Below, piece after piece: positions 7,518 to 46,950 of a DNA stretch of 64,000 nt; position 1 is the first letter of the stretch; the number at the start of each line of letters is the position of its first letter. The DNA comes from Sphingobacteriales bacterium (GTDB lineage Bacteria; Bacteroidota; Bacteroidia; Chitinophagales; JADIYW01): positions 7,739 through 71,738 of the forward strand of contig CANHGL010000007.1 of the NCBI GenBank assembly GCA_947460245.1. The letters are read 5' to 3'. The notes under the pieces are model-generated. The model had not been told where the DNA came from, made no database searches, and worked only from the letters and a program-made list of their open reading frames with translations. A program made the position numbers and the translations under genes.

Positions 7518-9182
7518 CTATGCTTTTTTCGTAAAGCTATCTTTTAATGAAACTGTTCTGTTGAATACGAGGTGTTCGTTGTTGCTGTCTTTATCCATGA
7601 AGAAATAACCCTTTCTCAAAAACTGAAAGTGATTTTCTTGTTTTGCTTCCTTAAATGCAGGCTCTGCATATGCTATGGGAATTATGTGTAAGCTCTCCGG
7701 ATTGATATATTCTTTAAAATCTCCTTCCTCGCTATTGGGATTTTCCACTTTGAACAATCGCTCGTATTCTCGTATTTCCACAGGAGTGGCAAAGGGTACA
7801 GATACCCAGTGAAGTGTGCCTTGTACCTTCAAACCAGAGGTGTCATTACCGCTCCTGCTTTCTGGAATGTAATTGCAATGAATTTCTATTACATTGCCTT
7901 CTATATCTTTTACAATATCGTTGCAAGTTATAATAAAAGCACCTTTCAGCCGAACGCTTTGTCCAGGTGCAAGTCTGAAAAATTTCTTTGGAGGATGTTC
8001 CATGAAATCTTCCCGCTCAATATAAATTTCTTTAGTAAAAGGTACTTGTCGTGTGCCTGAGTGTTCATCCTCAGGATTGTTCTCGATAGCTAAATGAATC
8101 AACTCTTCTTCTAAGTTGGTGATGATAACCTTAATAGGATCGAAAACCACCATCCTTCTTAAAGAGATTTTATTTAGTTCTTCACGAACGCAGAATTCTA
8201 ATAAGGAGATATCATTTATTTTTTCTCGTTTTGATATTCCAGCTCTATCACAGAACTCACGGATGGCACTTGGTGTATATCCTCTTCTGCGCATCCCTGA
8301 AATTGTGGGCATTCTTGGGTCATCCCATCCTGAAACATGTCGTTCATTAACGAGTTGCAATAACTTTCGTTTGCTCATCACAGTATAGTTAACATTCAAG
8401 CGGGCGAATTCATATTGATGCGAAGGGTAGATGCCTAATTTTTCTATACACCAATCATATAATGCTCTATGTGGAATAAACTCAAGTGTACAGATAGAGT
8501 GCGTGATATTCTCAATGGAATCACTTTGGCCATGAGCAAAGTCATACATAGGATATATGCACCACTTGTCGCCGGTTCGGTGGTGATGGGCAAATTTAAT
8601 GCGATATAAAAGTGGGTCACGTAGCAACATATTAGATGATGCCATATCAATCTTTGCACGTAGTGTTTTCTGTCCTTCGTTAAATTCTCCGGCTTTCATT
8701 CTTGCAAATAAATCGAGGTTCTCTGCTGTACTTCTATCCCTGTATGGACTATGCTGTCCGGGTTCGGTAGGTGTTCCTTTTTGTGCTGCAATTTCTTCAG
8801 AACTTAGATCGTCCACATAGGCATCACCTTGTTTTATGAGTTGTATGGCATATTCATAGAGCTTGTCGAAATAGTCGCTGGCGTAAAATTCATTTGCCCA
8901 GGTAAACCCTAGCCATTTTATATCTTCTTTTATGCTTTCCACATATTCGGTATCTTCTGTTACCGGATTAGTATCATCAAATCGAAGATTAGTCTTTCCT
9001 CCAAATTTTTGTGCAATTCCAAAATTCAGACATATGGAAGAGGCATGTCCCATGTGTAAGTAACCATTTGGCTCTGGTGGGAAACGAGTGAGAATAGAAG
9101 TGTATTTGCCAGACTTTAAATCGTTGTCAATAATTTCTTCAACAAAATTCAGTGACTTACCTTCTTCTTTGATTTCTTCCAT
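7518..9182 (-). CDS. glnS: Glutamine--tRNA ligase
   Basis: It carries class I aaRS motifs, HMGHA (HIGH) and VMSKR (KMSKS). The N-terminus NFVEEIIDNDL...RFPPEPNGYLH and the C-terminal anticodon-binding beta-barrel region are typical of GlnRS. Length is 554 aa. Confidence 0.92.
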   Translation of the reverse strand: MEEIKEEGKSLNFVEEIIDNDLKSGKYTSILTRFPPEPNGYLHMGHASSICLNFGIAQKFGGKTNLRFDDTNPVTEDTEYVESIKEDIKWLGFTWANEFYASDYFDKLYEYAIQLIKQGDAYVDDLSSEEIAAQKGTPTEPGQHSPYRDRSTAENLDLFARMKAGEFNEGQKTLRAKIDMASSNMLLRDPLLYRIKFAHHHRTGDKWCIYPMYDFAHGQSDSIENITHSICTLEFIPHRALYDWCIEKLGIYPSHQYEFARLNVNYTVMSKRKLLQLVNERHVSGWDDPRMPTISGMRRRGYTPSAIREFCDRAGISKREKINDISLLEFCVREELNKISLRRMVVFDPIKVIITNLEEELIHLAIENNPEDEHSGTRQVPFTKEIYIEREDFMEHPPKKFFRLAPGQSVRLKGAFIITCNDIVKDIEGNVIEIHCNYIPESRSGNDTSGLKVQGTLHWVSVPFATPVEIREYERLFKVENPNSEEGDFKEYINPESLHIIPIAYAEPAFKEAKQENHFQFLRKGYFFMDKDSNNEHLVFNRTVSLKDSFTKKA

Positions 9183-9224
9183 ATTATATACTTAAATGAT
9201 AAAGCTTAAAATAATATTAAGTCT

Positions 9225-10736
9225 TTAAAGTTGACTAAAACAATTTTCAATCCTTCTTGCTGATGTTTCTCTGCCAAGTAGCAAAATAAGTTCGGGTATA
9301 GTAGGTCCGGATAACTCACCTACCAATGCGGCACGTATAAATTTCATCAGGTCACCTGTTTTTAATGAGTTGGCCACCGCAAAATCTTTCAGTTTATTTT
9401 CTATTGCAATGGTATCGTTTTCAGAACCATTAATTAGGGCCTGAATCAAGTCATCTAAAGGTAATCCATCTTTTATACTTCTTACTTTTGATAATACTGT
9501 TTCGTCGTATATTTCAGGAGATTTAAATAAGTATCCGTAATTATTGCTTAAGTCACTGAGGAAAACCAATCTTTCCTTTACGAGTCCGCATACATTTGAT
9601 AGATAATCAGTCGCTATATGCCCGAATTTTTTTTCTATATCTGCTTTAACTAAATCAGCTAATTTGTTATTGCTTAATTTCTTGATGTATTCTGCATTAA
9701 ACCATTTTGCCTTTTCGAAATCAAATTTAGCTCCTGCCTTATGGATCTGTTCAAGGCTAAATAAATTGATTAATTCTTCCTTAGAGAAGATTTCTTGCGT
9801 GCCTCCTGGATTCCATCCTAAAAAGACCAGCATATTAAGTACTGCTTCAGGTAAGTATCCTTTTTCTCTATACCCGCTACTGATTTCATGTGTTTTAGGG
9901 TCGGTCCATTCTAATGGGAATACTGGAAATCCCAGTCTGTCTCCATCGCGTTTGCTAAGTTTTCCATTCCCATCTGGTTTTAGTAGTAGTGGTAGATGTG
10001 CAAATTTAGGCATCACTTGTTCCCATCCAAGATATCTGTACAGTAATACGTGTAATGGTGCACTAGGCAGCCATTCCTCTCCACGAATAACATGAGAAAT
10101 CTGCATTATATAATCGTCGCACACATTTGCTAAGTGATATGTAGGCATACCATCGCTCTTGAGTAATACTTTGTCGTCCATCTGCACAGTATTTACAACT
10201 ACTATTCCTCTGATTTCATCGTGAAATCGGACATCTTCATTTTCCGGTAGTTTGATACGGATTACATAATGCTCTTTTTTATTCAGCCGATCTTCTACCT
10301 CTTGTTCGCTTAGGGTTAGCGAGTTTTTCATTTGCAATCGCGTTGCGGCATCGTATTTAGCATTCTGATTTACTGCCTTGAGTTGCTCTAGTTCTTCTTC
10401 GGTATCAAAAGCATAGTAAGCAAAACCACTTTTAATAAGTTGCTCTGCATATTGTCTATAACTGTCTTTTCTGTCGCTTTGTCTATATGGTGCGTAAGGA
10501 CCATCTCCAAAAGCAACACCTTCATTTGGACGAATATCCATCCACTTAAGCGCTTCAATGATATATTGTTCTGCACCAGGAACTAATCTGTTTTGATCCG
10601 TATCTTCTATACGTAAGATAAAATCGCCATTATGTTTTTTGGCGTATAAATAATTATATAATGCTGTACGAACTCCCCCAATGTGAAGGGGGCCGGTCGG
10701 ACTTGGTGCAAAGCGAACACGAACTCTTCTGGTCAT
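9225..10736 (-). CDS. gltX: Glutamate--tRNA ligase
   Basis: The protein has RVRFAPSPTGPLHIGGVRTALYNYL (HIGH region) and KLSKRDG (KMSKS). The track start at 10778 is TTG, and the ATG at 10736 (MTRRVRVRF) fits the usual N-terminus. Confidence 0.92.
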   Translation of the reverse strand: MTRRVRVRFAPSPTGPLHIGGVRTALYNYLYAKKHNGDFILRIEDTDQNRLVPGAEQYIIEALKWMDIRPNEGVAFGDGPYAPYRQSDRKDSYRQYAEQLIKSGFAYYAFDTEEELEQLKAVNQNAKYDAATRLQMKNSLTLSEQEVEDRLNKKEHYVIRIKLPENEDVRFHDEIRGIVVVNTVQMDDKVLLKSDGMPTYHLANVCDDYIMQISHVIRGEEWLPSAPLHVLLYRYLGWEQVMPKFAHLPLLLKPDGNGKLSKRDGDRLGFPVFPLEWTDPKTHEISSGYREKGYLPEAVLNMLVFLGWNPGGTQEIFSKEELINLFSLEQIHKAGAKFDFEKAKWFNAEYIKKLSNNKLADLVKADIEKKFGHIATDYLSNVCGLVKERLVFLSDLSNNYGYLFKSPEIYDETVLSKVRSIKDGLPLDDLIQALINGSENDTIAIENKLKDFAVANSLKTGDLMKFIRAALVGELSGPTIPELILLLGRETSARRIENCFSQL

Positions 10737-13906: not shown

Positions 13907-14254
13907 TCATTGCTTGTATTGATAGGCTCCAATAAAGGAAACTATTGAAAATATAAAGTAAGCTATAAAAAAGAATAAAAATGCAATAGTTGTGGGTTCT
14001 TTAACCATCAATAGATAGATAATTACCAATAGGGCTGAAAGGCAGAATTTAATGGTAATGGCAGCAATATTAGATCCCAGCATTTTTTTAGACCCGGATT
14101 TATTATACCTGCGGATAATTAGGTAATGTATAATAGATATCGATGCCATGCCTAAGCTCATCCATCTATAAGCAAAAACAAGGTGTTGGTCAATAAAGAA
14201 ACTGCTAAGTATGAATAACAGGGCGATAATGATTATCAAAACTGGCCATTTCAT
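13907..14254 (-). CDS. Small integral membrane protein (about 4 TM), function unknown
   Basis: This 115-aa protein is almost entirely hydrophobic helices. Its ATG start lies 1 nt downstream of the preceding gene's stop, so it is the last gene of the M23-bactofilin operon. Confidence 0.6.
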   Translation of the reverse strand: MKWPVLIIIIALLFILSSFFIDQHLVFAYRWMSLGMASISIIHYLIIRRYNKSGSKKMLGSNIAAITIKFCLSALLVIIYLLMVKEPTTIAFLFFFIAYFIFSIVSFIGAYQYKQ

Positions 14255-14255
14255 T

Positions 14256-14480
14256 TTAGCGCATTTGTTTCATAATTCTATAAAAGCTGATGAAAAAGCC
14301 AGCGCACAATAATAAAATTACAAGAAATGGAGTAGTGTGAAATTTCTTATCAAGGAAATATCCTAAAGCCGTGAAAATACCTATGAAAGCAAACATCTCG
14401 AAGGCCATGCCAGTGTATGCGAGCCAGCTCTTGTTGCTTTTATCCGGCTGTTTGCGCTGCACTTGTTTGGGACTGTCCAT
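14256..14480 (-). CDS. AtpZ/AtpI-like small membrane protein
   Basis: The protein is 74 aa. A basic N-terminus is followed by WLAYTGMAFEMFAFIGIFTALGYFLDKKF and a second TM segment, which is the layout of AtpZ-type proteins. Its ATG at 14480 overlaps the bactofilin 3' end by 41 nt. Confidence 0.55.
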   Translation of the reverse strand: MDSPKQVQRKQPDKSNKSWLAYTGMAFEMFAFIGIFTALGYFLDKKFHTTPFLVILLLCAGFFISFYRIMKQMR

Positions 14481-14874
14481 TGCCGGCAGTGTTTTGAGTG
14501 GATTGGTGAAGTGGTTTTGTTACAGTAGATGAGTTTACCAATGATCCACTGATATTTGCCCCTTCTTCCACAATCAGTTTTTTATACCTTACCTCACCTT
14601 CAAATGCTGCAGTAGATCTAAAAAACAGAATGCCATTAACATCTAAATTCCCTTTTATTTTTCCCTCTATAGTGAGGTCATTACACTTGATGTGTCCTGT
14701 AATTTGTGCCTGAGGTCCAATAACTACCTTGGAAGAGCTGCTGATATTGCCTAATACCTTTCCATCTAAACGAATATCTGTCTGTGCAGATATATCACCT
14801 GTGATAGTGGTTCCTTCATTTATTTTATTAGCGACCATAGTTTCTATATTGCTTTTCTGAATCTTTGTAAACAT
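14440..14874 (-). CDS. Bactofilin family polymer-forming cytoskeletal protein
   Basis: A repetitive beta-helix pattern is present: TTITGDISAQTDIRLDGKVLGNISSSSKVVIGPQAQITGHIKCNDLTIEGKIKGNLDV. The C-terminal tail is S/T/Q-rich. The track start at 14880 is TTG, and the ATG at 14874 (MFTKIQ) is more likely. Confidence 0.85.
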   Translation of the reverse strand: MFTKIQKSNIETMVANKINEGTTITGDISAQTDIRLDGKVLGNISSSSKVVIGPQAQITGHIKCNDLTIEGKIKGNLDVNGILFFRSTAAFEGEVRYKKLIVEEGANISGSLVNSSTVTKPLHQSTQNTAGNGQSQTSAAQTAG

Positions 14875-14880
14875 ATGCAA

Positions 14881-15744
14881 TTATTTTAAAAATTTAGAGG
14901 GATCAAAGGATTGACCTTTGTACCAAATTTCAAGGCTACAGGAATAACCTTTTGTGGAATTACTCTTTCCAGCGTTGGCTATAACTTCACCGCGACTTAC
15001 GAAGGTACCTATTTTCTTTAATATTTTACTGTTATTTTTTAATATGTATACTAGTTGATTTTCAGACTGTACAGCAATAAAATACTGATCTGTAGTGGTA
15101 TATCCTGTTAGTATAACATGCCCAGGGAGTACCGCCTTTACCGCCTCTTCGGGATCAGCAGAGAGTTCAATATTCCTTGTATTTTGACTGAATTTAGTAA
15201 GGATACCACCAGAAACTGGAGCATACAACGCTAAGTCTTTTAAGCCATTTGTGCGTGCATCCTGAACTGATTTTAATAATTCTATATTTTGTAGCCCTTT
15301 CTCCATATTCCCAATGAACTTGGATTCATCGTTTGATTTTAGGCTAAGAACGCTCGTGTCTACATTTACTTTATTGATTTTACCGGTAACGGCATCCACA
15401 ACAACCTTGCTATTTAGGATATTTTGAAGATTTGTAAGGTATTTCTGTTGTGCTAGCATTTTTTCTTCCAAGTCTTCTGACTTCATACTGATTTTTAGTA
15501 TTTCCTTACGACCATAAGAGGATCCATACCCCGGAACATATTGTTTTAGCGGTGTGAATGAAATCAGTGCAAAATTTAAGAAGGTGAAAAAAAGAATTAC
15601 CAACCCACTGATGATAATAACATTCAGCCTATTGAGTTCTATTACCATCTTCACGGCATAGCTCTTCTCATCAATAATCTGAAAACGGTAGGTGTCTTTT
15701 AACTTTTCTCGCCATTTGTTCCAGCGCTGTCTGTTTATTGCCAT
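14881..15744 (-). CDS. Membrane-anchored M23/LytM-fold protein with degenerate active site
   Basis: It has an N-terminal TM segment (VIIISGLVILFFTFLNFALISF). The C-terminal LytM fold shows PVSGGILTKF...GEVIANAGKS...DPSKFL, but the canonical HxxxD and HxH positions read NIELS and CSLEIW. Confidence 0.75.
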   Translation of the reverse strand: MAINRQRWNKWREKLKDTYRFQIIDEKSYAVKMVIELNRLNVIIISGLVILFFTFLNFALISFTPLKQYVPGYGSSYGRKEILKISMKSEDLEEKMLAQQKYLTNLQNILNSKVVVDAVTGKINKVNVDTSVLSLKSNDESKFIGNMEKGLQNIELLKSVQDARTNGLKDLALYAPVSGGILTKFSQNTRNIELSADPEEAVKAVLPGHVILTGYTTTDQYFIAVQSENQLVYILKNNSKILKKIGTFVSRGEVIANAGKSNSTKGYSCSLEIWYKGQSFDPSKFLK

Positions 15745-15828
15745 GTGAGATGATGATTAAGCAAATTTCACTGAAATAAGTAAAATAAATTTAGGAAATT
15801 GCGTTAAAATTAGGGAATTATAACGAGC

Positions 15829-18800
15829 ATGCGTCTATCTACGGCTAAAAAACTGCTACTCTTGACTTTATCTCTTGTCTTTTTTTTGGTAGACAGTTCA
15901 GCTGAAAACAAAAAGAAGAAGGCGTCTGAGTATCAAAAACCTAACATTATCAAGATGGCATGGGGTGATCTCACTACCCGAAATAATTACTATTTCAATG
16001 CCAGTGAGTTATTTAAGGAGATTGTCCATAATTATGAGTTTCAGCGTCAGTTAGATTACAATGAACTTCTGCCTTTCTATTTTCATGACGGTGCAGATTT
16101 TTCTGGTAATACCACTGAATTAGAAACCATAGCCCGCAAAACCGGTATAGTCTTGCAGTTGCATGATTATAGTCGCTGGAGGGATAATGCATTTTTATTG
16201 TTAGGTAAGTCGCAGTTTCTCAGGAAGCAATATGATACTTCTCTAATTACTTTCCAGTACATCGTAACAACGATGAAGCCTGGAAAGATGAATATGAAAG
16301 TTGAATTTAGTAATAAAGACCGCCTGAAATATATTCGTAAGCGACAAAAAGAGTTGGCAAAAAAAGCTGGGGAGAAGAAGAAATTTATTGAAATTAAATT
16401 TAAGAAGGATCAGGAAGAGGCCCAGCAAAAGGCAGAAACAGCCCGTGAAAAGCAATTAGCTGCCATCAAGCAAAAGCAAAAACAATTAGAAGAAATAATT
16501 AAGGCAAAAAAGAAAATCATTGCTTTACAAAAGAAAGGAAAGAAGATTCCTCCTGAACTTTTAGCCAAGGCGAAAGCCAAGACCACCAAAGTTGATTCTG
16601 CAACTATACAGCAAGTTCAGCCTATCAAGAAAACACAAAAGCCTAATTACGCCACCAATCTGCCTTATATTCTGTTGGGGGATCAGTATGTTAAAAATCC
16701 ATACTATAAAGATTCCACTGGTGACAGAGCTAACCAAAGACCATTGGATAGTTTATCAAAGAAAGCAGAAGAAAAATTTGATAAACTTAGTTTTTGGGAA
16801 AAAATCAAACACAAACCATCTCGGCCTGAAGCAATTGTATGGATGGCTAAATCCCTTATAGAACTTGAAAACTATGCGGATGCAAAAAGTATGATTTCTT
16901 ACGGTAAGGCATTGCGTAAATTAACCAAAAAGCAACGTCGTGAGTTTTATCTTATAGATGCATATTATCATATCCGAAGAGAGGATTATTCTCCCGCTAT
17001 TGAGGAGATCGAAAATGCTTTACTTTATTTCAAGAAGAAAAAAGACAAAGCCTATTATGAATACATCTTAGCCCAGTTGTATTCAAAAAATAATCAGCCT
17101 GCGGACGCTGTAGATTATTTTGTTAAGGCGGGTAAGCACACTAAAACAGAGGAAATGACTCTTTTCTCTCAAATGCAGTTGGCTAATTTATACAGTAAAA
17201 ATCCTGATCTGGCAGATCAGGATGTGGTGAATATGTTATCTAAATTGATTCGATTTGGAAAGAACAGGGAGCATGCAGACGAGGTGTTCTATACCATGGC
17301 TAATTATTTTTATTTTCAGAAAGATACTACCAATGCAGTGGTCTTCTTGCAAAAGTCGGTTAATAAATCTATAGCTAATCCAAACCAAAAAGGAAAGTCC
17401 TTTCTGCGTTTAGGAGAGATTGCTTATGATAGAGAAGACTATGTAGTAGCTGCAGGTTTTTACGATAGTGCTATAGCTTATTTGCCTGTTGGATATGAAA
17501 ACTATGATCAGATTCAAAGCAGAAAGAAGACATTGAGTGAACTGGCTATTTATGTTCAGGTAATCAAAGAGCAAGATAGTCTTCAGCGTTTGGGAAAGTT
17601 AAGTCCCAAAGAATTGGATAAGTTTCTTTCTGATGTAAAATCAAAACAGGAAAAAGAGGAGCGAAAGAAATCGAGGTTTACATCAGAAGGAGGAGCGAAT
17701 ACAATACAGCAGACAGGTTTAGTATCTGCGAATGTTATTTCTAATGGCTTATGGTATTTTTACAACCTAGAAACAAAGAGTAAGGGGTTTAATGAGTTTG
17801 TAAGTATTTGGGGAGATAGAAAGCTGGAAGCTAATTGGAGAAGAAGTAATAAGAGTGGATTTACAGACGATTTTAATGCTCCTGCAATTAATACTATTGA
17901 TACCTCTTCCATCCCAGCTTCTAAAGGTATTAAGAGATTAGTGCCATTAAAAACTGCTACTGATAGTTTATCGATTCCGAAGACACCCGAGGCATTTATG
18001 GCGTCTGATAAGAAGATTGCAAATGCTCTTTTTGGTATCGGTGAAATCTTTAAAAATAAGTTGGGTAACCTTTCCAAAGCAAAGCAGGCATTTGATGATT
18101 TGATACGAAGGTATCCAAACAGTGAATTTGATGTCAAGGCTCATTACTATGAGTATCTTATTTATTTGGATTTAAACTTGGTAGGATTAGCCCAGAAAGA
18201 AAAACAATATATACTTGAAAATTATCCCATTTCAGAAGTTGCAGAGGTGTTAAATAAAAACGGAGTTAAGGATCCTTCAACAGCCTCATCTACCAGGGCG
18301 CAAATCCTTTATGATTCAACGTATCAATTATTTTTGTCAGGAAATTGTGATCAGGTAATTATCAATAAGAAGTTTGCCAAAATGAAATATCCTGCTGCTG
18401 CCGAACTTGCTAACTTTGAATTTTTAGAGGCTGTCTGTTATGGTAAAAACAAGCAATTTGATTTATATAAGAAAGCGTTGTCTGAGATTATAACAAAATA
18501 TCCATCAGGTGCCATTAGGCAGAAGGCGCTGGATTACTTATCCGCATATCTTGATTTTCAAGGAAAGCCTTCGGATACTCTGGCACAAAAGGTCTCCATT
18601 CCCAAAGATACAGTGACGATTATTAGAGATAGTCTGGCGGATGAGTTTATAGTAGATACTACTAATTTGTGGGTGTTAGTACAATTGAAAGATAAATACA
18701 TTCGTGTATCAGATGTTGTAGAACAGGTTAAAGTATTTAACCAAAAGAATTTTAGTGATTTGAAGTTGAAAATAAATCCTGTTTTTTTTGAAGGCTATGC

Positions 18801-19008
18801 AGTGCTTACAATCAAAAGATTTGAAGGTATTACGGATGCCCGAGAGTATTATGTAAAAATCAGAAATGTGTCTTCCAGTTTAGCGGGGGAGAATAATAGT
18901 AAGAATATTGCTTATTATATTCTGGCTCCATCCAACTTTAGAAAGATAAAGAAGCTTGATGATTTTGGTGCTTACACTAAATTTTTTGAACAAAATTATC
19001 CTAAATAA
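15829..19008 (+). CDS. Secreted 1059-aa TPR-repeat protein with a K/E-rich coiled-coil segment
   Basis: The signal peptide MRLSTAKKLLLLTLSLVFFLVDSSA has no lipobox Cys. Residues ~160-262 are a lysine/glutamate-rich heptad-like stretch. There are several TPR-like helical-pair blocks, for example YGKALRKL...YYHIRREDYSPAIEEIENAL...AQLYSKNNQPADAVDYFVKA. The stop TAA is directly followed by the PBP1a ATG. It may belong to the SprE/PorW-type TPR family, but I cannot verify that. Confidence 0.7.
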   Translation: MRLSTAKKLLLLTLSLVFFLVDSSAENKKKKASEYQKPNIIKMAWGDLTTRNNYYFNASELFKEIVHNYEFQRQLDYNELLPFYFHDGADFSGNTTELETIARKTGIVLQLHDYSRWRDNAFLLLGKSQFLRKQYDTSLITFQYIVTTMKPGKMNMKVEFSNKDRLKYIRKRQKELAKKAGEKKKFIEIKFKKDQEEAQQKAETAREKQLAAIKQKQKQLEEIIKAKKKIIALQKKGKKIPPELLAKAKAKTTKVDSATIQQVQPIKKTQKPNYATNLPYILLGDQYVKNPYYKDSTGDRANQRPLDSLSKKAEEKFDKLSFWEKIKHKPSRPEAIVWMAKSLIELENYADAKSMISYGKALRKLTKKQRREFYLIDAYYHIRREDYSPAIEEIENALLYFKKKKDKAYYEYILAQLYSKNNQPADAVDYFVKAGKHTKTEEMTLFSQMQLANLYSKNPDLADQDVVNMLSKLIRFGKNREHADEVFYTMANYFYFQKDTTNAVVFLQKSVNKSIANPNQKGKSFLRLGEIAYDREDYVVAAGFYDSAIAYLPVGYENYDQIQSRKKTLSELAIYVQVIKEQDSLQRLGKLSPKELDKFLSDVKSKQEKEERKKSRFTSEGGANTIQQTGLVSANVISNGLWYFYNLETKSKGFNEFVSIWGDRKLEANWRRSNKSGFTDDFNAPAINTIDTSSIPASKGIKRLVPLKTATDSLSIPKTPEAFMASDKKIANALFGIGEIFKNKLGNLSKAKQAFDDLIRRYPNSEFDVKAHYYEYLIYLDLNLVGLAQKEKQYILENYPISEVAEVLNKNGVKDPSTASSTRAQILYDSTYQLFLSGNCDQVIINKKFAKMKYPAAAELANFEFLEAVCYGKNKQFDLYKKALSEIITKYPSGAIRQKALDYLSAYLDFQGKPSDTLAQKVSIPKDTVTIIRDSLADEFIVDTTNLWVLVQLKDKYIRVSDVVEQVKVFNQKNFSDLKLKINPVFFEGYAVLTIKRFEGITDAREYYVKIRNVSSSLAGENNSKNIAYYILAPSNFRKIKKLDDFGAYTKFFEQNYPK

Positions 19009-21252
19009 ATGCGTAGAATGAAAGCGTGGTTATTGCAACCCAAGAACTTATGGAAGCTATTTGGCTTTGCTGTCTTGTCGGTTGTTATATTCTTTATGTT
19101 GGTGCGGGTGGGCTTATTCGGTCGTCTCCCAAGTTTTGATGAGCTCGAGAATCCAACGGCAAATCTTTCTTCTGAGATCTATTCGTCGGATTCTGTTTTG
19201 ATTGGTAAATATTATGTAGATAACCGAAGTAATGTATCGTACGAGGAATTGTCTCCATATTTGGTAAAGGCATTGGTAGCTAATGAAGATGAACGTTTTT
19301 ACGATCACTCCGGCATTGATCTTAAGCGTACTATAGCGGCTATATTCATGGCAGGTAGAACTGGTGGAGGGAGTACGGTAACGCAGCAACTAGCCAAAAA
19401 TATGTTTCATCATCAGGCGAGTAATATTATTCAACGTGTTTTTCAAAAGGCTAAAGAGTATATTATAGCTGTAATGTTGGAGAGGAGGTATACCAAAGAG
19501 GAAATTATTGCAATGTATTTCAATACTTTTGATTTTGTAAATAACGCAGTAGGAATTGAAAGTGCATCAAGGGTGTACTTTAATAAAAAACCCAACGAGT
19601 TGAGTGTTGAAGAGGCTGCTATGTTTGTAGGAATGTTACAAAATCCTTCTTATTATAATCCCAGAAGATTTGAGAAAAGGACCAGAGAGCGCAGGGCTAC
19701 TGTTTTAAGAAAATTGATGGAAACCGATGCTATTTCAGAAGCTCAGTTCCAATCTCTGAAAGAAAAACCCATACAACTTGATTTCCATCCAGAATCTGCT
19801 AATGATGGTTTGGCACCCTATTTTAGAATGATAGTTGCTGAAGAGTTAAAAAAATGGGCCAAAGAAAACAAAAAACCAGATGGAGAGCCCTATAATATTT
19901 ACACAGACGGACTCAAGATCTATACTACTTTGGATTCCCGTATGCAGAAATATGCAGAAGAGGCAGCATTGCAACACCTTACCTATTACCAGTCGTTGTT
20001 TAACGCACAATTCAAGGCTGGTTGGAATCCTTGGGAAACCGACAAGGGTAAGGCAATAATATTAAGTGCAATAAAGTATACAGATCGTTGGCACTCCCTT
20101 AAAGATCAAGGCTTAAGCAAGGAGGATATTTTAGAGAATTTCAAAACGAAGAAAGAGAAGATGCGTGTCTTTACCTATCGTGGTTTAAAAGATACTACTA
20201 TGACGGCTTGGGATTCAGTTAAGTACTATAGATCATTTTTGCAGATTGGTATGATGGCAGTGGAGCCATATACGGGCTATGTTCGTGCATGGGTTGGTGG
20301 TCCTAAATTTGAATATTTTAAGTACGATCACTGTAATGTAAATACAAAACGACAAGTAGGATCTACTTTTAAACCGGTGCAATATGCCCTCGCAGTAGAT
20401 AATGGATGGTCGCCATGTATGAGTATTCCAACCGGTCCAATTACGGTTACTTATCAAGGCACAGTCTGGGAACCTAAAAATTCCGGTAGATACAGTGGAA
20501 ATTATCCTATGAAGTTTTGTCTTGCACGTTCTATCAACAGAGCGGCTGCTTATATGATGAAGAATTTTGGACCGGAAGCTCTGGTAGACTTATCCCACAA
20601 AATGGGAATAACTACAAATATTCCTACTGTCCCTTCTATTTGTTTGGGAGCAGGTGAAATTTCATTATATGAAATGATGACTGTTTATAGTACCTTTTGC
20701 AATGCAGGGATTAGCACTAAACCTCAATATCTATTAAGGATTGAAGATAAAGACGGAAATATTATCCAAAATTTTACTACGGAAATGAAAGAAGTATTTA
20801 GTGATAATACGGCTTATAAAATGTGTGAATTACTGAAAGGGCCTGTGTCATCTGGAGGTACTGCAGCTAGATTACGTTCCTATTTTACCTTCCCAACAGA
20901 TGTAGGTGGTAAAACGGGTACAACGAATAAGAATACAGATGCATGGTTTATCGGATTTACACCTCAATTACTCGCAGGTGTTTGGGTTGGATGTGATGAC
21001 CCATTACTTCGTTTTCTTTCTACTGATATTGGTCAAGGAGGGCATGCAGCAATGCCAGCCTGGGGGATGTTTATGCAGAAGGTATACAATGATCCCAAGT
21101 TAGCGCTTAATAAGGATGCCAAATTCTTTAGCCCATCTGATTCATCATTGCTTAAAAATGTTTGTAATGAGGGGGAAGAGATACTTATCAGTGGTGATGA
21201 TACCGGACAAGCTGATGAAGAGGTTCCTGATTCCGAATATGGTAAGAAATAG
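19009..21252 (+). CDS. mrcA: Penicillin-binding protein 1A (bifunctional glycosyltransferase/transpeptidase)
   Basis: GT51 motifs are EDERFYDHSGID and GGSTVTQQLAKN. Transpeptidase motifs are STFKP (SxxK) and KTGTT (KTG). An N-terminal TM anchor is present. Confidence 0.92.
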   Translation: MRRMKAWLLQPKNLWKLFGFAVLSVVIFFMLVRVGLFGRLPSFDELENPTANLSSEIYSSDSVLIGKYYVDNRSNVSYEELSPYLVKALVANEDERFYDHSGIDLKRTIAAIFMAGRTGGGSTVTQQLAKNMFHHQASNIIQRVFQKAKEYIIAVMLERRYTKEEIIAMYFNTFDFVNNAVGIESASRVYFNKKPNELSVEEAAMFVGMLQNPSYYNPRRFEKRTRERRATVLRKLMETDAISEAQFQSLKEKPIQLDFHPESANDGLAPYFRMIVAEELKKWAKENKKPDGEPYNIYTDGLKIYTTLDSRMQKYAEEAALQHLTYYQSLFNAQFKAGWNPWETDKGKAIILSAIKYTDRWHSLKDQGLSKEDILENFKTKKEKMRVFTYRGLKDTTMTAWDSVKYYRSFLQIGMMAVEPYTGYVRAWVGGPKFEYFKYDHCNVNTKRQVGSTFKPVQYALAVDNGWSPCMSIPTGPITVTYQGTVWEPKNSGRYSGNYPMKFCLARSINRAAAYMMKNFGPEALVDLSHKMGITTNIPTVPSICLGAGEISLYEMMTVYSTFCNAGISTKPQYLLRIEDKDGNIIQNFTTEMKEVFSDNTAYKMCELLKGPVSSGGTAARLRSYFTFPTDVGGKTGTTNKNTDAWFIGFTPQLLAGVWVGCDDPLLRFLSTDIGQGGHAAMPAWGMFMQKVYNDPKLALNKDAKFFSPSDSSLLKNVCNEGEEILISGDDTGQADEEVPDSEYGKK

Positions 21253-21394
21253 TCTGGGATCATCCATTTCAATTCTATAGATTTAATTAATCGCTCATTT
21301 TTTACATGATTTAATAAGCATGTCACAAAATCTATCTATTAGCTGTATCTATAGTAGAGATTAACCCCCATCTTTACATTAGCAACTGAGGATA

Positions 21395-21473
21395 GAAACA
21401 TAGAAACCCAAAGAAACAGAAACCTTAGTAACCTAATCCGAAAGAAACAAAAAAACCTAGGAAACATTGAAAC
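21395..21473 (+). repeat. Phased array of GAAAC-type pentamers (7 exact, 2 variant copies)
   Basis: GAAAC occurs at 21395, 21403, 21413, 21419, 21444, 21461 and 21469. Variants are GTAAC at 21428 and AAAAC at 21452. Spacing is mostly 8-10 nt. AACCCCC is present at both 21363 and 21471. Confidence 0.85.
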
Positions 21474-21481
21474 CCCCTAAA

Positions 21482-21508
21482 AGAGCAACATCACGTTGCT
21501 CTTTTTTA
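21482..21508. terminator. Intrinsic terminator: strong on the + strand, and also placed to terminate the minus-strand SPOR gene
   Basis: The hairpin is AGAGCAAC (21482-21489), loop atcac, GTTGCTCT (21495-21502), followed by T6 on the + strand. On the minus strand the hairpin is followed by TTTT and lies 20 nt past the SPOR gene stop. Confidence 0.75.
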
Positions 21509-21522
21509 TTATTAGAAGTTTA

Positions 21523-21966
21523 TTAATAGTTTTTCTGTTTTGGCTTTTTGTCGTCACCAGGAGAGGAGGCCTTCTCTTCAATGACAAAACTTGCAGGAAA
21601 GTAAGGCTTAACCTGCTGCATAAATTTATAAGCCTCTTGTTGGGTCTCAAATTCTCCAGCCCTCAATTTGAAATTTGGAGGCACATAAGTAACAAAAGTA
21701 GCTATGCCTGGAAATCGTGCAGAAAATTGTGCTTTGGCTTCGAATATCCTTTCTCTGGAAGGAGCCTGAAATACCTGTACCCTTATCAGTCCTTTCTTCT
21801 TGCCATCTGCTTTTCTTAGATATATCTTTTGAAGTATGTCAACCCTGGGGTCTTTAAAGAAGATAATATTATTACTTACTTGAACAGTGTCGCTACTGTT
21901 TGCACTTACTGCTATAATGGAAGTAACTAAAATCCAGGATGTAATTATTTTTTTTAGTTTACCCAT
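21523..21966 (-). CDS. SPOR domain-containing protein
   Basis: The C-terminal region reads RVQVFQAPSRERIFEAKAQFSARFPGIATFVTYVPPNFKLRAGEFETQQEAYKFMQQV, which matches the SPOR (RNP-like, PG-binding) pattern. The plausible start is MGKLKKIITSWILV (21966). The longer track ORF would overlap the secA 3' end. Confidence 0.7.
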   Translation of the reverse strand: MGKLKKIITSWILVTSIIAVSANSSDTVQVSNNIIFFKDPRVDILQKIYLRKADGKKKGLIRVQVFQAPSRERIFEAKAQFSARFPGIATFVTYVPPNFKLRAGEFETQQEAYKFMQQVKPYFPASFVIEEKASSPGDDKKPKQKNY

Positions 21967-21983
21967 TTTAATGTTTGGATTAT

Positions 21984-24900
21984 CTAGACCGTCTCTTTTC
22001 CGTGACAGTGTTTGTATTTCTTTCCACTTCCGCAAGGACATACATCATTTCTTCCAATCTTCACCTCTGCTCGAACCGGTTGTGGCTTCTCTCCAGGTGT
22101 TGTTCCTGCGCCTGCATATTCATCTTCTATTGTGCCATCACCTCTGGATTCTTTCGTTTTTTCTACCACTCTTCTCGGTTGTCTGTGCTGTTGTATCTGA
22201 GTAGCATCCTGAACGGGCAGGCTGCCCTTCATTAGAAAAGTTGTTACATCTTTATTGATGGCGCTCAGCATCTGCTTAAATAATTCAAAGGCTTCGAACT
22301 TAAAGATTAATAAAGGATCTTTTTGTTCGTGCACTGCCATCTGAACAGAATGCTTTAAGTCATCCATCTGTCGCAAATGATCTTTCCAGTGATGATCTAT
22401 GAAAGATAAAATGATATTCTGTTCAAATACTTTTATCAGTTCTCTCCCCTTGCTATTGTAGGATTTTTCAAGGTTAGCAATGATGTTCACACTTCTGTTG
22501 CCATCTGAAAAAGGGATAACAATATTTTGGAACTGACTTCCACGTTCCTGGTATACATTCTTTACAATAGGATAGGCTTCCTTTATAATGCCTTCAGATT
22601 TACGACTGTATTTCTCATAAACTTCTTTGTAAAGATGTTCAGTCAGCTCTTCTGTTTTCTTAATTTTTAATTCTTCAGCGGTAAGTGAAGTATCTACGGA
22701 TAAGAAGCGGAAGCAGTCCAATTTAAATGCTTCAAAATCCTGAGCTACTTTCCCGTCTGCTGCGATTTCATAACTCAGGTCGTAAAACATATTAATAAGG
22801 TCGAATGTGATACGTTCTCCCACTAGGGCATGCTGTCTTCTTTTGTAGATGACTTCCCTTTGTGCATTCATCACATCATCGTATTCTAAAAGTCGTTTAC
22901 GCGTTCCGAAGTGATTTTCTTCCACTTTTTTCTGAGCGCGCTCTATGGATTTTGTTACCATAGCATGCTGGATAACCTCTCCTTCTTTATAGCCCATCCT
23001 GTCCATCAGTCCAGCAATCCTGTCTGACCCAAATAGGCGCATTAAATCATCTTCTAAAGATGAATAGAACTGGGTGGATCCGGTATCGCCCTGTCTTCCC
23101 GCACGTCCACGCAACTGTCTGTCCACTCTGCGCGAGTCATGGCGTTCAGTTCCTATAATAGCCAATCCGCCTGCATCTTTCACGCCGGGTCCGAGTTTGA
23201 TATCTGTACCTCGACCTGCCATATTCGTAGCAATAGTTACCTGTCCCGCTAGTCCCGCTTGCGCTACAATCTCTGCTTCCCGTTGGTGTTGTTTGGCATT
23301 TAGAACATTGTGAGGGATTTTACGCATATTGAGCATCTTACTCAATAATTCAGATACTTCTACATTAGTAGTTCCCACGAGTACGGGTCTTCCTTCTGCT
23401 CTGTACTGTTCGATTTCTTCAATAATAGCATTGTATTTTTCGCGCTTAGTCTTGTAAATAAGATCTTCCCTGTCTATACGTTTTGTTTTTTTGTTAGTTG
23501 GTACCACGACCGTATCAAGTTTGTAAATTTCCCAGAACTCAGATGCTTCAGTTTCTGCAGTACCCGTCATGCCGCAAAGCTTGTGGTACATGCGGAAGAA
23601 GTTTTGCAAGGTGATGGTAGCAAAAGTCTGAGTCGCAGCCTCTACTGTTACATTCTCTTTAGATTCAATAGCCTGGTGAAGTCCATCGCTATATCGGCGG
23701 CCTTCCATGATACGTCCTGTTTGCTCATCTACAATTTTAACCTTGCCATCCATTACCACATATTCGATATCCTTGTCAAATAGACAGTATGCTTTTAATA
23801 ACTGGTTAACGGTATGTAAACGCTCCGACTTAACATTAAAATCCTGTAAGATTTCGTCTTTCTTTGTTAGTTTCTCCTGGTGCGAAAGGGCTTCTTGTTC
23901 TACTTCTGCAAGCAATGCTCCAACATCCGGCATTAAGAAGAAATCTTTTTCTTCTCCTGAGGAGGTAATTAGCTCTATTCCTTTTTCTGTAAGATCAATT
24001 TGATTGCTTTTTTCATCTATAACAAAAAATAATTCTGCATCACATAAAGGCATTTCCTTTTGTTGATCTTGCAGATAGTAGTTTTCTGTTTTATTTAAAA
24101 TTTGTTTATTCCCTGTCTCGCTTAAAAATTTTATTAATGCAGTATTTTTTGGCAATCCACGATGTGCCCGTAATAATGCCAACCCGCCTTCGCCTTCTTT
24201 GTGTCCTGTCTTGCCTTCCGATATTAATTTCTTTGCATCCAGCAGGAACTGACTAATCGCTTTTTTTTGAGTGGCTACTAAGCGTTCAATTCTTGGTTTT
24301 AATTCATGGAACATCTGTTCCTCTCCTTTAGGAACTGGACCGGAAATTATTAATGGGGTTCTTGCATCGTCAATCAAGACAGAGTCCACCTCATCTACCA
24401 TGGCAAAGTGGAGTTTGCGCTGCACCTGCTCCTCCGGGGATCTTACCATATTATCGCGCAAATGGTCGAACCCAAATTCATTATTGGTACCATAGGTGAT
24501 ATCGGCTAAGTAGGCATTCTTTCTGTCGTCTGTATGTGGTTCATGCCTATCTATGCAATCGACACGTAGCCCAAGAAAATTAAACAACATTCCGTTCCAT
24601 TCAGAGTCACGTCTAGCCAGATAGTCGTTTACAGTAACGATATGAACTCCACAACCCGCCAATGCGTTCAGATATGCCGGTAAAGTAGACACCAATGTTT
24701 TACCTTCACCTGTTGCCATTTCTGATATCTTTCCTCGGTGTAACACAATACCACCGATGAGCTGAACATCATAATGCACCATGTTCCAGGTGATTTCGCC
24801 ACCTGCAGCTGTCCATTTGTTGGGATAGATAGCTTCATCGCCACTAATTTTTATGTTAGAATTTTTTACAGCTAGTTCTTTATCTAACGTAGTAGCTTTT

Positions 24901-25298
24901 ACAGCAATAAATTCATTCTCGGAAAATCTACGTGCTGCTTCTTTTACCACAGCAAAGGCTTCAGGGAGTATAGTCTCTAAAATTTCTTCAATGGCTTCGT
25001 CGCGTTCCTTTCTTAATTTATCTACCTGGCTAAAAATACCTTCTTTTTCTTCAAGCTCTAACTCTTCAGTTTCAGCCTTAAGTGTGAGTTCAATAATTTG
25101 TTGATCTATTTCAGATAAATACTCTTGTATTCTGTATTTGAAATCCTGTGTCTTTTGTCTTAGCTCATCATGCGACAAATTTTGGTAGGTCAGAAAATGT
25201 TCATTTATCTGTTCTACAATTGGAGCTACCGACTTTACGTCACGATTTGATTTACTTCCGAATAATTGTGAAAGACCTTTCTGTATGAAATTTAACAT
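21984..25298 (-). CDS. secA: Preprotein translocase ATPase SecA
   Basis: It has the MATGEGKT Walker A and [19 protein letters not shown] (DEAD-like) motifs, plus [10 protein letters not shown]. The C-terminal zinc-binding tail reads [14 protein letters not shown]. Length is 1104 aa. Confidence 0.97.
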
Positions 25299-41759: not shown

Positions 41760-41778
41760 TCATTCTATTAGGATTTTA

Positions 41779-41800
41779 TTAAGATTACGTGTAATCTTAA
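41779..41800 (+). terminator. Strong hairpin 20 nt after the M13 peptidase stop (terminator-like, no U-tract)
   Basis: The sequence is TTAAGATTAC gt GTAATCTTAA, with 9-10 bp perfect arms. No T-run follows, so terminator function is uncertain. Confidence 0.4.
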
Positions 41801-42069
41801 ATACTTACCTGCTTCACTTTTTTCTTGTTTACCAAATACAAGACCATTTCCGCCGTATAATGGTGTAATTCTACCATATACTTAATCTGAAATTTAAGGG
41901 GATTTTCTCTTCGTAATATTGTACTAACAGATTTTGTTTACGTTTCTCTCTTAAAAATCTGTTGTTTACGGCTTTTTAAAAAAGACCCTAAAGGCTTAGA
42001 AAATACAAACCCCAACAACTTATCATTAAAATGATTTATAGTAAGTTTTGAGTTAGAGGGTATTTACAC

Positions 42070-42471
42070 ATGAAAAAGATTTTCAAAATAGCATTTTACC
42101 TCCTTCTGTTGGTTCTTTCACCAACCTCTTATGTATTTGGATTTTCAAGTGGTGTAGATAATTCTAAAACTACTTTGCGCAGTATTTGGAAGTATGAACA
42201 GGATTACTCTAAATATTCCGACGAAGAGGGTATCGCGAAGAAAATATACTTTCTCTCTTTAAATTCTGATGGAACTTATCACCAGTATATTCAGGTAGTG
42301 CCTTCAAATCCCAAGAATTACTATCATGTAAAAAATTATGAGATTGAAGGTAAATGGTCTGAGAAGGATGGTAAATTGATTTTGAATGAATATGGCAAGG
42401 AGAGCTCCATCGATTATAATTTTATCTATAGCAATTTTGAGAATATCGATAACCAGTTTATTTCCAAATAA
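42070..42471 (+). CDS. Small secreted hypothetical protein
   Basis: This 133-aa protein has the signal peptide MKKIFKIAFYLLLLVLSPTSYVFG and is Y/K/N-rich. I recognise no motif. A clear terminator lies downstream. Confidence 0.6.
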   Translation: MKKIFKIAFYLLLLVLSPTSYVFGFSSGVDNSKTTLRSIWKYEQDYSKYSDEEGIAKKIYFLSLNSDGTYHQYIQVVPSNPKNYYHVKNYEIEGKWSEKDGKLILNEYGKESSIDYNFIYSNFENIDNQFISK

Positions 42472-42520
42472 TATTCCTTTTTAGTAATAAAAAAAGTTTT
42501 TTAAAAGTTGTTTACGTTAG

Positions 42521-42548
42521 CCGTTCGTTTGTTGCGAACGGTTTTTTT
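42521..42548 (+). terminator. Intrinsic terminator of the 42070..42471 gene
   Basis: The structure is CCGTTCG (42521-42527), loop tttgttg, CGAACGG (42535-42541), then T7. Confidence 0.8.
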
Positions 42549-42644
42549 ATTTTCAAATCATTAATTCTGACAGTTTAATCTGCAAAACTTATTTGATTTT
42601 GTAAATTTAAGGAATGGGTTTGTTTATCTTATATTCAATTAGGA

Positions 42645-46590: not shown

Positions 46591-46950
46591 AAGAATTATT
46601 ACTGTCGTATTACAACTTCTCAGAAGATTCTAAAAACAATAACTTACTAGACCCAGGTGATAAGCCTGGAGTCAGATTATCTCTATACTTTAAAGGAACA
46701 GAAACTGTTAGCATCTTGAATACTAAATAGTAATTTGTGATTATTGACCCAGATTACGGCTATAATACATTTTTCATTGAAAATTAATTATAGGATATTG
46801 AATGAGTTTAAACGCTGATTTTTTTGCTATTTGGCATTTATTGTAAACCTGTTTTTCTGATTTATTTCCTATTTTCACAACCTACTCTTATTGTTTTTTT
46901 TAGTTCATTTATTAAGGGTCGAATTCTAACATCAACAAATTAAAATAGAT

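Follow-up and report, generated by a model that had tools for sequence, protein, structure and literature searches.

The analysis concerns the long non-coding gap between two convergent genes of an uncultured freshwater Sphingobacteriales bacterium (GTDB order Chitinophagales). In the 64,000-nt stretch of contig CANHGL010000007.1 (assembly GCA_947460245.1, positions 7,739 to 71,738), referred to below as the window, the gene of the cell-wall synthase PBP1a on the + strand and a gene for a septum-binding SPOR-domain protein on the - strand are separated by 270 bp, by far the longest of the ten convergent gaps in a rough gene map (53, 7, 0, 270, 50, 11, 0, 5, 8, and 3 bp). Of the other nine, seven measure 0-11 bp, in agreement with the original prediction, and two are ~50 bp. 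The original prediction for this gap was an array of GAAAC motifs running into an intrinsic terminator, taken to be a terminator-ended small RNA (sRNA) or a structured 3′ untranslated region (3′UTR) of the PBP1a mRNA or, alternatively, a protein-binding site on the DNA. The analysis favored the RNA on the + strand, given the evidence for selection, a shared predicted fold, a G-U/G-C change in one of its helices, the lack of any match in Rfam and the lack of a conserved reading frame. According to this reading 21369-21510 would be a lineage-restricted, selectively constrained non-coding RNA, and the full statement, namely that a + strand RNA at these positions acts as a protein-binding platform, is in our judgment somewhat better than an even bet.

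A conserved non-coding element between PBP1a and SPOR

An exact search returned the seven predicted GAAAC copies at 21395, 21403, 21413, 21419, 21444, 21461, and 21469 on the + strand, together with a GTAAC at 21428 and an AAAAC at 21452. GAAAC occurs 133 times on the two strands of the 64 kb, no more than shuffles predict (mean 124), which corresponds to ~0.08 copies expected per 79 nt, so that the array is well beyond chance. When the 79-nt array was itself subjected to 20,000 mononucleotide and 20,000 dinucleotide shuffles, the mean number of GAAAC copies was 0.35 and 0.62, respectively, the maximum was 4 and a count of 7 was never reached; thus, the local A-rich composition is insufficient to explain the cluster. 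Across the window no other pentamer attains seven copies within 79 nt, and the array is the only 80-nt segment with an A+C content of at least 72% (peak 77.5%; mean 47%, SD 6%).

Among 5.8 billion proteins, only two lineages carry a SPOR protein closer than ~70% identity to that of the window over most of its length (P0002, 86%, and P0003, 73%), and in both the element lies directly after the SPOR stop codon (loci L058, L059, and L060). The three-sequence alignment of the window with L058 and L059 showed that the array stands within a larger unit than had been proposed, since conservation begins abruptly ~26 nt upstream of it, at CATCTTTACA (21369), and continues through the array and the hairpin to the T-run. 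Over its 142 columns the element is 80-87% identical in pairwise comparisons and the array alone 72-82%. The corresponding values are 36-51% for the four-fold degenerate sites of SPOR, 42-57% for its third codon positions and 50-57% for the gap sequence on the upstream side of the element. Judged from this alignment, neutral sites have reached saturation and the element changes at the pace of first and second codon positions; given that it has kept its identity while the adjoining neutral sites lost theirs, the comparison indicates that it is under purifying selection in the three lineages.

These figures also bear on the possibility that the gap serves termination only, i.e., that a bidirectional PBP1a/SPOR terminator is its sole functional part and that the array is slippage-generated filler, similar in the three lineages through recent common ancestry. 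In its favor, repeat families of 29 nt and 15 nt, their units lying 31 nt apart, show internal duplication; insertions at the junction are hypervariable, and most relatives lack the element. However, the array has remained alike beside saturated neutral sites, and its indels avoid the motifs. Gaps of no more than 0-50 bp separate these genes in related genomes, which leaves no need for 110 nt of filler; we regard this explanation as improbable.

Comparison of the homologues changed the definition of the motif. The conserved unit is not GAAAC in seven places but RAAAC, or its AAAC core, in eight slots: exact GAAAC is counted 7, 4, and 5 times in the three lineages, as compared with 8, 7, and 8 for AAAC and 11, 11, and 12 for AAC. 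Of the RAAAC columns 37/40 are invariant and none has an indel, whereas 16/31 spacer columns are invariant and 10/31 have indels (Fisher p = 2e-4 for RAAAC and 3e-5 for the AAAC core, in a slot alignment anchored by hand on the motifs, so that the test leans towards them). The GTAAC “variant” is not a conserved slot and falls instead in the 3′ half of the inner helix described below. As for the AACCCCC heptamers said to bracket the array, both copies are present (21363 and 21471), but the 5′ copy reads TATGCCTC or TGCGCCGC in the homologues; the bracket is therefore, on this comparison, coincidental and not conserved.

The distances between slots were informative with respect to a site acting as duplex DNA, whether as an iteron or response-regulator array or as a bent A-tract. 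In favor of such a site, a short motif recurs in direct orientation about every 8-10 bp, and GAAACAT presumably resembles the half-sites of some winged-helix regulators. However, successive slots are 8, 10, 6, 25, 8, 9, and 8 nt apart in the window, as against 8, 12, 5, 25, 8, and 18 in one homologue and 8, 11, 7, 24, 6, 9, and 7 in the other; spacings of 5-12 bp and one of 24-25 bp are not phased at ~10.5 bp and are shifted by 1-2 bp indels between homologues, so that the helical phasing originally suggested was not supported. In addition, an A+C bias that is strand-asymmetric over ~110 nt can be understood only in a single strand, as can the G-U/G-C change, and the position between two 3′ ends leaves no promoter to control. 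We consider a DNA-level site very improbable.

For a small protein encoded here, the probability appears next to nil. An ATG-initiated open reading frame (ORF) of 42 codons does exist on the - strand (21339-21467), but its 42-aa product has no Pfam match, its frame is broken in L058 and L059 and its ATG is lost in L059. The + frame from 21358 to 21480 runs open without an ATG, GTG, or TTG, just as predicted, and it ends differently in each homologue. No frame is conserved across the three, as 1-2 nt indels break them, and no gene is called at the element in the three source contigs.

The element likewise matched no described RNA family. Rfam 15 gave 0 matches for the whole window at gathering thresholds, and with E up to 10 the best hit in the region 20900-21900 scored 24 bits against a gathering threshold of 57 (Plastid-psbA 3′UTR) and covered the hairpin only; no tRNA or tmRNA genes were found. 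A three-sequence nhmmer profile detected no paralogue in 87 sequences (the window and 86 loci, 685 kb), and for an origin from a mobile element, a miniature inverted-repeat transposable element (MITE), a phage or a plasmid there were neither further copies in these sequences nor blastn matches in plasmids and phages, while two viral contig scans returned only chance 16-mers or nothing. MITE-like terminal inverted repeats were rejected, the only candidate being an 18-nt, 72% complementary AT-rich pair. A CRISPR 5′-handle was also rejected: ATTGAAAC at 21466-21473 is similar, but it is found in the window only and has no repeat-spacer structure. A metagenome pattern scan with CTGAGGNNAGAAACNNAGAAACC yielded 19 chance matches (a recurring repeat and GC-rich contigs), which is a weak negative because the JGI contig of L059, Ga0480291_0047337, holds CTGAGGNNAGAAACNNAGAAACC and yet was not returned, placing it outside the scanned JGI collection.

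Predicted fold, strand, and termination

Folded separately, the three homologues gave the same predicted structure, in which an outer helix, a variable middle helix and an inner helix (P1) lead to an apical loop and are followed by a linker and the terminator hairpin (Table 1). In the core of P1, 21386-91 would pair with 21423-28 (CUGAGG/CCUYAG). The apical loop, 31-33 nt long and 81-85% A+C, is predicted to be unpaired in all three homologues, as is the linker of 32-35 nt, whose unpaired probability is ~0.9-1; loop and linker are 77-85% A+C.

Several features distinguish the two strands. The folding z-score against shuffles was -4.8 for the + strand and -1.1 for the - strand, and the U-tract after the hairpin is U6 on the + strand versus U4 on the - strand. 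One P1 pair is G-U in the window and L058 (CCUUAG) and G-C in L059 (CCUCAG), which on the - strand would be a C-A mismatch. Since this change fits the + strand only and the U-tract there is longer, the models suggest that the + strand is the RNA strand. The G-U/G-C change and the window substitutions A->U at 21379 and C->U at 21437, which add two pairs to the middle helix, are at most suggestive of a maintained structure. Both halves of the outer helix are invariant, so that covariation speaks neither for nor against it.

The hairpin and T-run proved to be real, and the stem is longer than first described: AAAAGAGCAAC-ATCAC-GTTGCTCTTTT, 21479-21505, with 11 bp, followed by TTATTATT. Four of its pairs are G-C, and the sequence combines the G+C stem, the 3-8 nt loop and the adjoining U-tract that would be expected of an intrinsic terminator. 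All three lineages have an identical stem, with loops that differ (ATCAC, ATCGT, TCTAC). Terminator-like sites across 60 kb numbered 20, 14, and 20, where shuffles gave means of 12-14, an excess that is modest at best, and this hairpin is one of only two textbook terminators in that sequence, the other being at 42519-42543. From the PBP1a stop codon (21252) to 21513 it is the sole terminator-like site, and because no other lies in between, the PBP1a transcript probably runs through the element, with a 3′UTR of ~258 nt. By sequence, then, the candidate shares its terminator with the upstream mRNA and has none before it, as 3′UTR-derived sRNAs do.

The RNA would thus be either the tail of the PBP1a mRNA or an sRNA of ~140 nt, which would arise via an internal promoter or by processing and end at the common intrinsic terminator. 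Bacteroidota promoters have the consensus TAnnTTTG at -7 and TTTG at -33 (PMC7366714). By inspection, a TATnTnTA box upstream of the element, a speculative degenerate -7 element, agrees in each of the three sequences with 4-5 of the 6 defined positions of TAnnTTTG, and a scan at 5/6 or better lists the L058 box only. No sigma-70-like site was found upstream of the element on the + strand, and a promoter of the extracytoplasmic function (ECF) type (TGAAAC-N16-CGT) was rejected, because its two parts are 20 nt apart and, by inspection, its motif is not conserved.

An unstructured 3′UTR that is poor in G and richer in C than in G could also load Rho (a rut site), halting PBP1a transcription before its antisense entry into SPOR, with the hairpin as backup. 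In terms of composition only, the element has what a rut site is expected to have over ~80 unstructured nt, with C:G ratios of 2.0-3.5 (20:10, 20:9, and 28:8 in the 85-88 nt core), 10-16 YC dimers and an RNA predicted to be unpaired. Rut sites, however, are compositional and specific motifs in them are rarely conserved, whereas the AAAC cores here are nearly invariant; moreover, the strong intrinsic terminator immediately after would make Rho redundant, and the 5′ stem would be left unexplained. Rho loading is in our view extremely doubtful as the role of the array.

The candidate RNA as a proposed protein-binding platform

In the mechanism that we favor, the 5′ stem (UCUUU/AAAGA, the variable middle helix, and CUGAGG/CCUYAG) would keep the A/C-rich loop open, and the A/C-rich linker would connect it to the terminator hairpin with its U-tail. 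The working parts would be the eight RAAAC slots, of which the loop and the linker contain four each, held unpaired through the near absence of G and U. Given the stem-opened, G/U-poor loop, the G/U-poor linker and motif cores that are kept while the spacers drift, the RNA may be a multivalent platform on which an RNA-binding protein specific for single strands would be either titrated or recruited to the PBP1a message. A narrower version, in which the eight-slot array in the PBP1a 3′ end is a dedicated decoy or recruitment platform for a candidate single-strand RNA-binding protein (e.g., an RRM-1 Rbp or a KH-type, KhpA/KhpB-like protein), is offered as a tentative and rather unlikely proposal. 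Among 35 translated sequences scanned against Pfam (34 of the ~50 predicted window genes and the 42-aa ORF), none matched an Hfq, RRM, or KH family.

The main rival to the protein platform is base pairing, in which the + strand RNA would act in trans and its accessible RAAAC stretches (e.g., the invariant AGAAACAUAGAAACCC) would serve as redundant seeds against GUUUY-rich mRNA sites. The element has the canonical sRNA architecture of a stem-loop, a conserved single-stranded stretch and a terminator with a U-tail, it contains invariant single-stranded blocks of 16 nt and 11 nt, and base pairing is the mode of action of GibS and FopS in Bacteroides (PMC7366714, PMC11697453). However, against the remainder of the 64-kb window it reaches no more than 13 nt of complementarity, a chance-level value, and a motif of 4-5 nt repeated eightfold between free spacers would be an uncommon seed; such repetition is seen more typically in protein sites. 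We hold base pairing to be possible and, on the present evidence, unlikely.

A number of observations weigh against our own reading, the chance-level complementarity and the motif-leaning slot alignment among them. Compensatory covariation was seen in 0/25 pairs (three sequences, all at least 80% alike and too few for such a test), and the three folds are not independent of one another. There is no perfect TAnnTTTG or TTTG of a Bacteroidota promoter upstream of the element. The hairpin is common to the SPOR gene, whose stop codon begins ~18 nt past the terminator stem; judging by the A4 before and the T6 after the stem (A4/T4 symmetry) it can act bidirectionally, and some of the conservation might be owed to SPOR termination. 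Lastly, the element was present at the syntenic position in the two closest lineages, as the original prediction demanded, but absent from all other relatives examined (SPOR ≤75% or PBP1a ≤84% identity). None of the 54 GTDB genome loci found via PBP1a (too distant, at ≤84% aa identity), including 26 Chitinophagales-like loci, has the array downstream of PBP1a, and no further copies occur at the SPOR homologues P0004, P0005, P0010, P0036, P0070, and P0078 or at the PBP1a fragments P0082, P0083, and P0089. Because it is absent from all more distant relatives examined, the element is, as far as these genomes indicate, dispensable for the clade at large.

With respect to known systems, the element is like CrcZ/CrcY of Pseudomonas (Hfq/Crc) and CsrB/RsmZ (CsrA/RsmA) in being a putative terminator-ended non-coding RNA with many short unpaired motifs, and like CrcZ it is A-rich and CA-rich. 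Unlike them it has RAAAC: the A-rich motif AANAANAA occurs only 1, 0, and 1 times in the three homologues, and GGA 2, 1, and 0 times, and since both are essentially absent, the element is by motif not a CrcZ-type or CsrB-type sponge. It is also smaller (~140 nt as against ~400 nt for CrcZ), and the Rfam CrcZ model scored 10 bits versus a gathering threshold of 95, on the wrong strand and at the hairpin only. The A-R-N triplets pointed out in the original prediction do exist, each homologue having one or two runs of four in regions predicted to be unpaired. Runs of at least 3-4 such triplets are what a ligand of the Hfq distal face would show, but they are a sequence property only and no sign of binding.

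TRAP and HutP leaders, which are bound by ring-shaped oligomeric proteins, carry 9-11 (G/U)AG triplets or UAG repeats at 2-3 nt spacing in a 5′ leader. The element likewise has many short motifs, predicted to be single-stranded, that are kept and are separated by short free spacers; its motif differs, its spacing is 5-12 nt, it occupies a 3′UTR position and it has no attenuator logic.

Within the phylum, Bacteroides are reported to be without Hfq and CsrA (PMC13370968, PMC11697453). There are Bacteroidota sRNAs made up of a single-stranded region and a Rho-independent terminator whose single-stranded parts are bound by the RRM protein RbpB (PMC11697453); sRNAs that are derived from 3′UTRs and use the parental terminator occur in Bacteroides (PMC7366714). 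Among the closest known systems are GibS and the FopS sRNA family of Bacteroides, which belong to the same phylum and are bound by the RRM-1 protein RbpB (PMC11697453, PMC7366714). The element differs from them in that FopS has a 5′ single-stranded seed whereas the element has a stem-closed loop with repeats, and in that GibS and FopS are intergenic with their own promoters whereas the element is in a 3′UTR position. The structure of FopS has been deposited in Rfam (PMC11697453), and no GibS/FopS family was among the Rfam 15 matches to the element at E up to 10, all of them hairpin noise. In layout the element also resembles the 3′UTR-derived sRNAs DapZ, CpxQ, and SroC of enterobacteria and BTnc028 of B. 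thetaiotaomicron, which lie downstream of a coding gene and end at that gene’s terminator; as in these, conservation starts abruptly inside the 3′UTR. The Rfam DapZ model scored 19 bits on the element versus a gathering threshold of 56, which is noise.

Genomic setting and significance

The coordinates of the element, of its predicted parts and of the flanking genes are collected in Table 1.

Table 1. Features of the PBP1a/SPOR locus (window coordinates).
Feature	Coordinates	Strand	Description
PBP1a gene	19009..21252	+	Cell-wall synthase; Transgly and Transpeptidase domain matches (Pfam)
Block TAATAAGCATGTCACAAAA	21313..21330	+	Common to window and L058 amid diverged upstream sequence
TATnTnTA box	21346..21353	+	Speculative degenerate -7 element; weakly conserved, 15 nt upstream of conserved block; invariant T94 A95 T96 T98 T100 A101 (alignment columns)
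Whole conserved non-coding element, candidate RNA	21369..21510	+	5′ stem-loop domain, single-stranded linker and terminator, as predicted; nhmmer recovers only the window, L058 and L059 loci
Outer helix, 5′ half (UCUUU)	21371..21375	+	Predicted to pair with 21441-21445; three folds and RNAalifold consensus
Inner helix P1, 5′ half ((A)CUGAGG)	21385..21391	+	Predicted to pair with 21423-21429; pair probability near 1 in three folds
Apical loop	21392..21422	+	31 nt, 81% A+C; RAAAC slots 1-4 (21395, 21403, 21413, 21419); unpaired probability ~0.9-1.0
Inner helix P1, 3′ half (CCUUAG(U))	21423..21429	+	Contains the GTAAC “variant”
Outer helix, 3′ half (AAAGA)	21441..21445	+	Predicted in three folds and RNAalifold consensus
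A/C-rich single-stranded linker	21446..21478	+	RAAAC slots 5-8 (21444, 21452, 21461, 21469) and CCCCU tail
Intrinsic terminator	21479..21513		11-bp stem AAAAGAGCAAC/GTTGCTCTTTT, 5-nt loop; T6 then ATTATT on +
SPOR-domain gene (septum-binding)	ORF 21523-22041; probable gene 21523..21966	-	Marginal Pfam SPOR score; homologues named SPOR proteins

The SPOR ORF of 172 aa overlaps SecA by 58 nt. Since its homologues measure 140-148 aa and align from the internal Met26 of the window ORF, the true start is probably the ATG at 21966, giving a protein of 147 aa. The window is near-identical to ENA contig MEHR18-2 scaffold_122 and to two Logan contigs, and its PBP1a relatives place it in an uncultured Chitinophagales lineage, the best matches (82-84% aa identity) being in freshwater and activated-sludge metagenome-assembled genomes.

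Among Chitinophagales relatives (L001-L024, L047, L061-L065, L112, L113) the PBP1a/SPOR junction is hypervariable and a hot spot of gene content. It contains a membrane ORF of ~60 aa in L001, L047, L065, and L113, a PIN-domain toxin and two small ORFs in L062, a 153-aa ORF in L061, a DNA methylase in L112 (with similar sequence in L004) and a 2OG-Fe(II) oxygenase in the P0082 contig, and the two genes converge directly in L002 and L022. The idea that the element is a pseudogene remnant of the small membrane ORF in L001, L047, L065, and L113 was rejected, as there is no nucleotide similarity. At L067:500-640, an ENA contig, three palindromic units AACCTCGTAGGTTG / AACCTACGAGGTT with the look of repetitive extragenic palindromic (REP) elements lie just downstream of the SPOR homologue.

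In the window itself, PBP1a and SPOR stand in a run of cell-envelope/division-type genes at 13907-25298, comprising an ORF without Pfam match, bactofilin, an M23 peptidase, a 1059-aa TPR protein, PBP1a, SPOR, and SecA. At 42070-42560 on the + strand, the second textbook terminator (42519-42543, followed by T7) comes after an orphan 133-aa ORF without Pfam match, which is bordered by unusually long gaps on either side (41760-42069, 310 nt, and 42472-42644, 173 nt). The longest intergenic region of the window is a 360-nt non-coding gap at 46591-46950, upstream of a thiolase / 3-hydroxyacyl-CoA dehydrogenase pair. Two adjacent class-I aminoacyl-tRNA synthetase genes of the Glu/Gln type, the first of them GlnRS-like or GluRS-like and the second the other, lie in tandem at 7518-10736 on the - strand.

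Taken from three lineages, the sequences make the element a credible candidate for a regulatory RNA outside the described families. Its kind, a terminator-ended sRNA or 3′UTR element with repeated unpaired motifs, is known, and its motif, layout and phylum are new. Confined as it is to three close uncultured lineages and dispensable in their neighbors, it is for now one more plausible sRNA candidate and would not surprise a specialist. Post-transcriptional control in Bacteroidota beyond the gut Bacteroides is, however, almost unexplored, and the eight predicted unpaired RAAAC motifs may be used as bait for a protein, or for targets, that read such motifs in environmental Chitinophagales. That the element lies where the PBP1a message ends points tentatively to a connection with envelope growth. 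If the decoy reading is true, the element would be a functional analogue of the CrcZ/RsmZ-type sponges in a phylum in which the members studied are without Hfq and CsrA, and it would possibly couple wall synthesis to post-transcriptional control.

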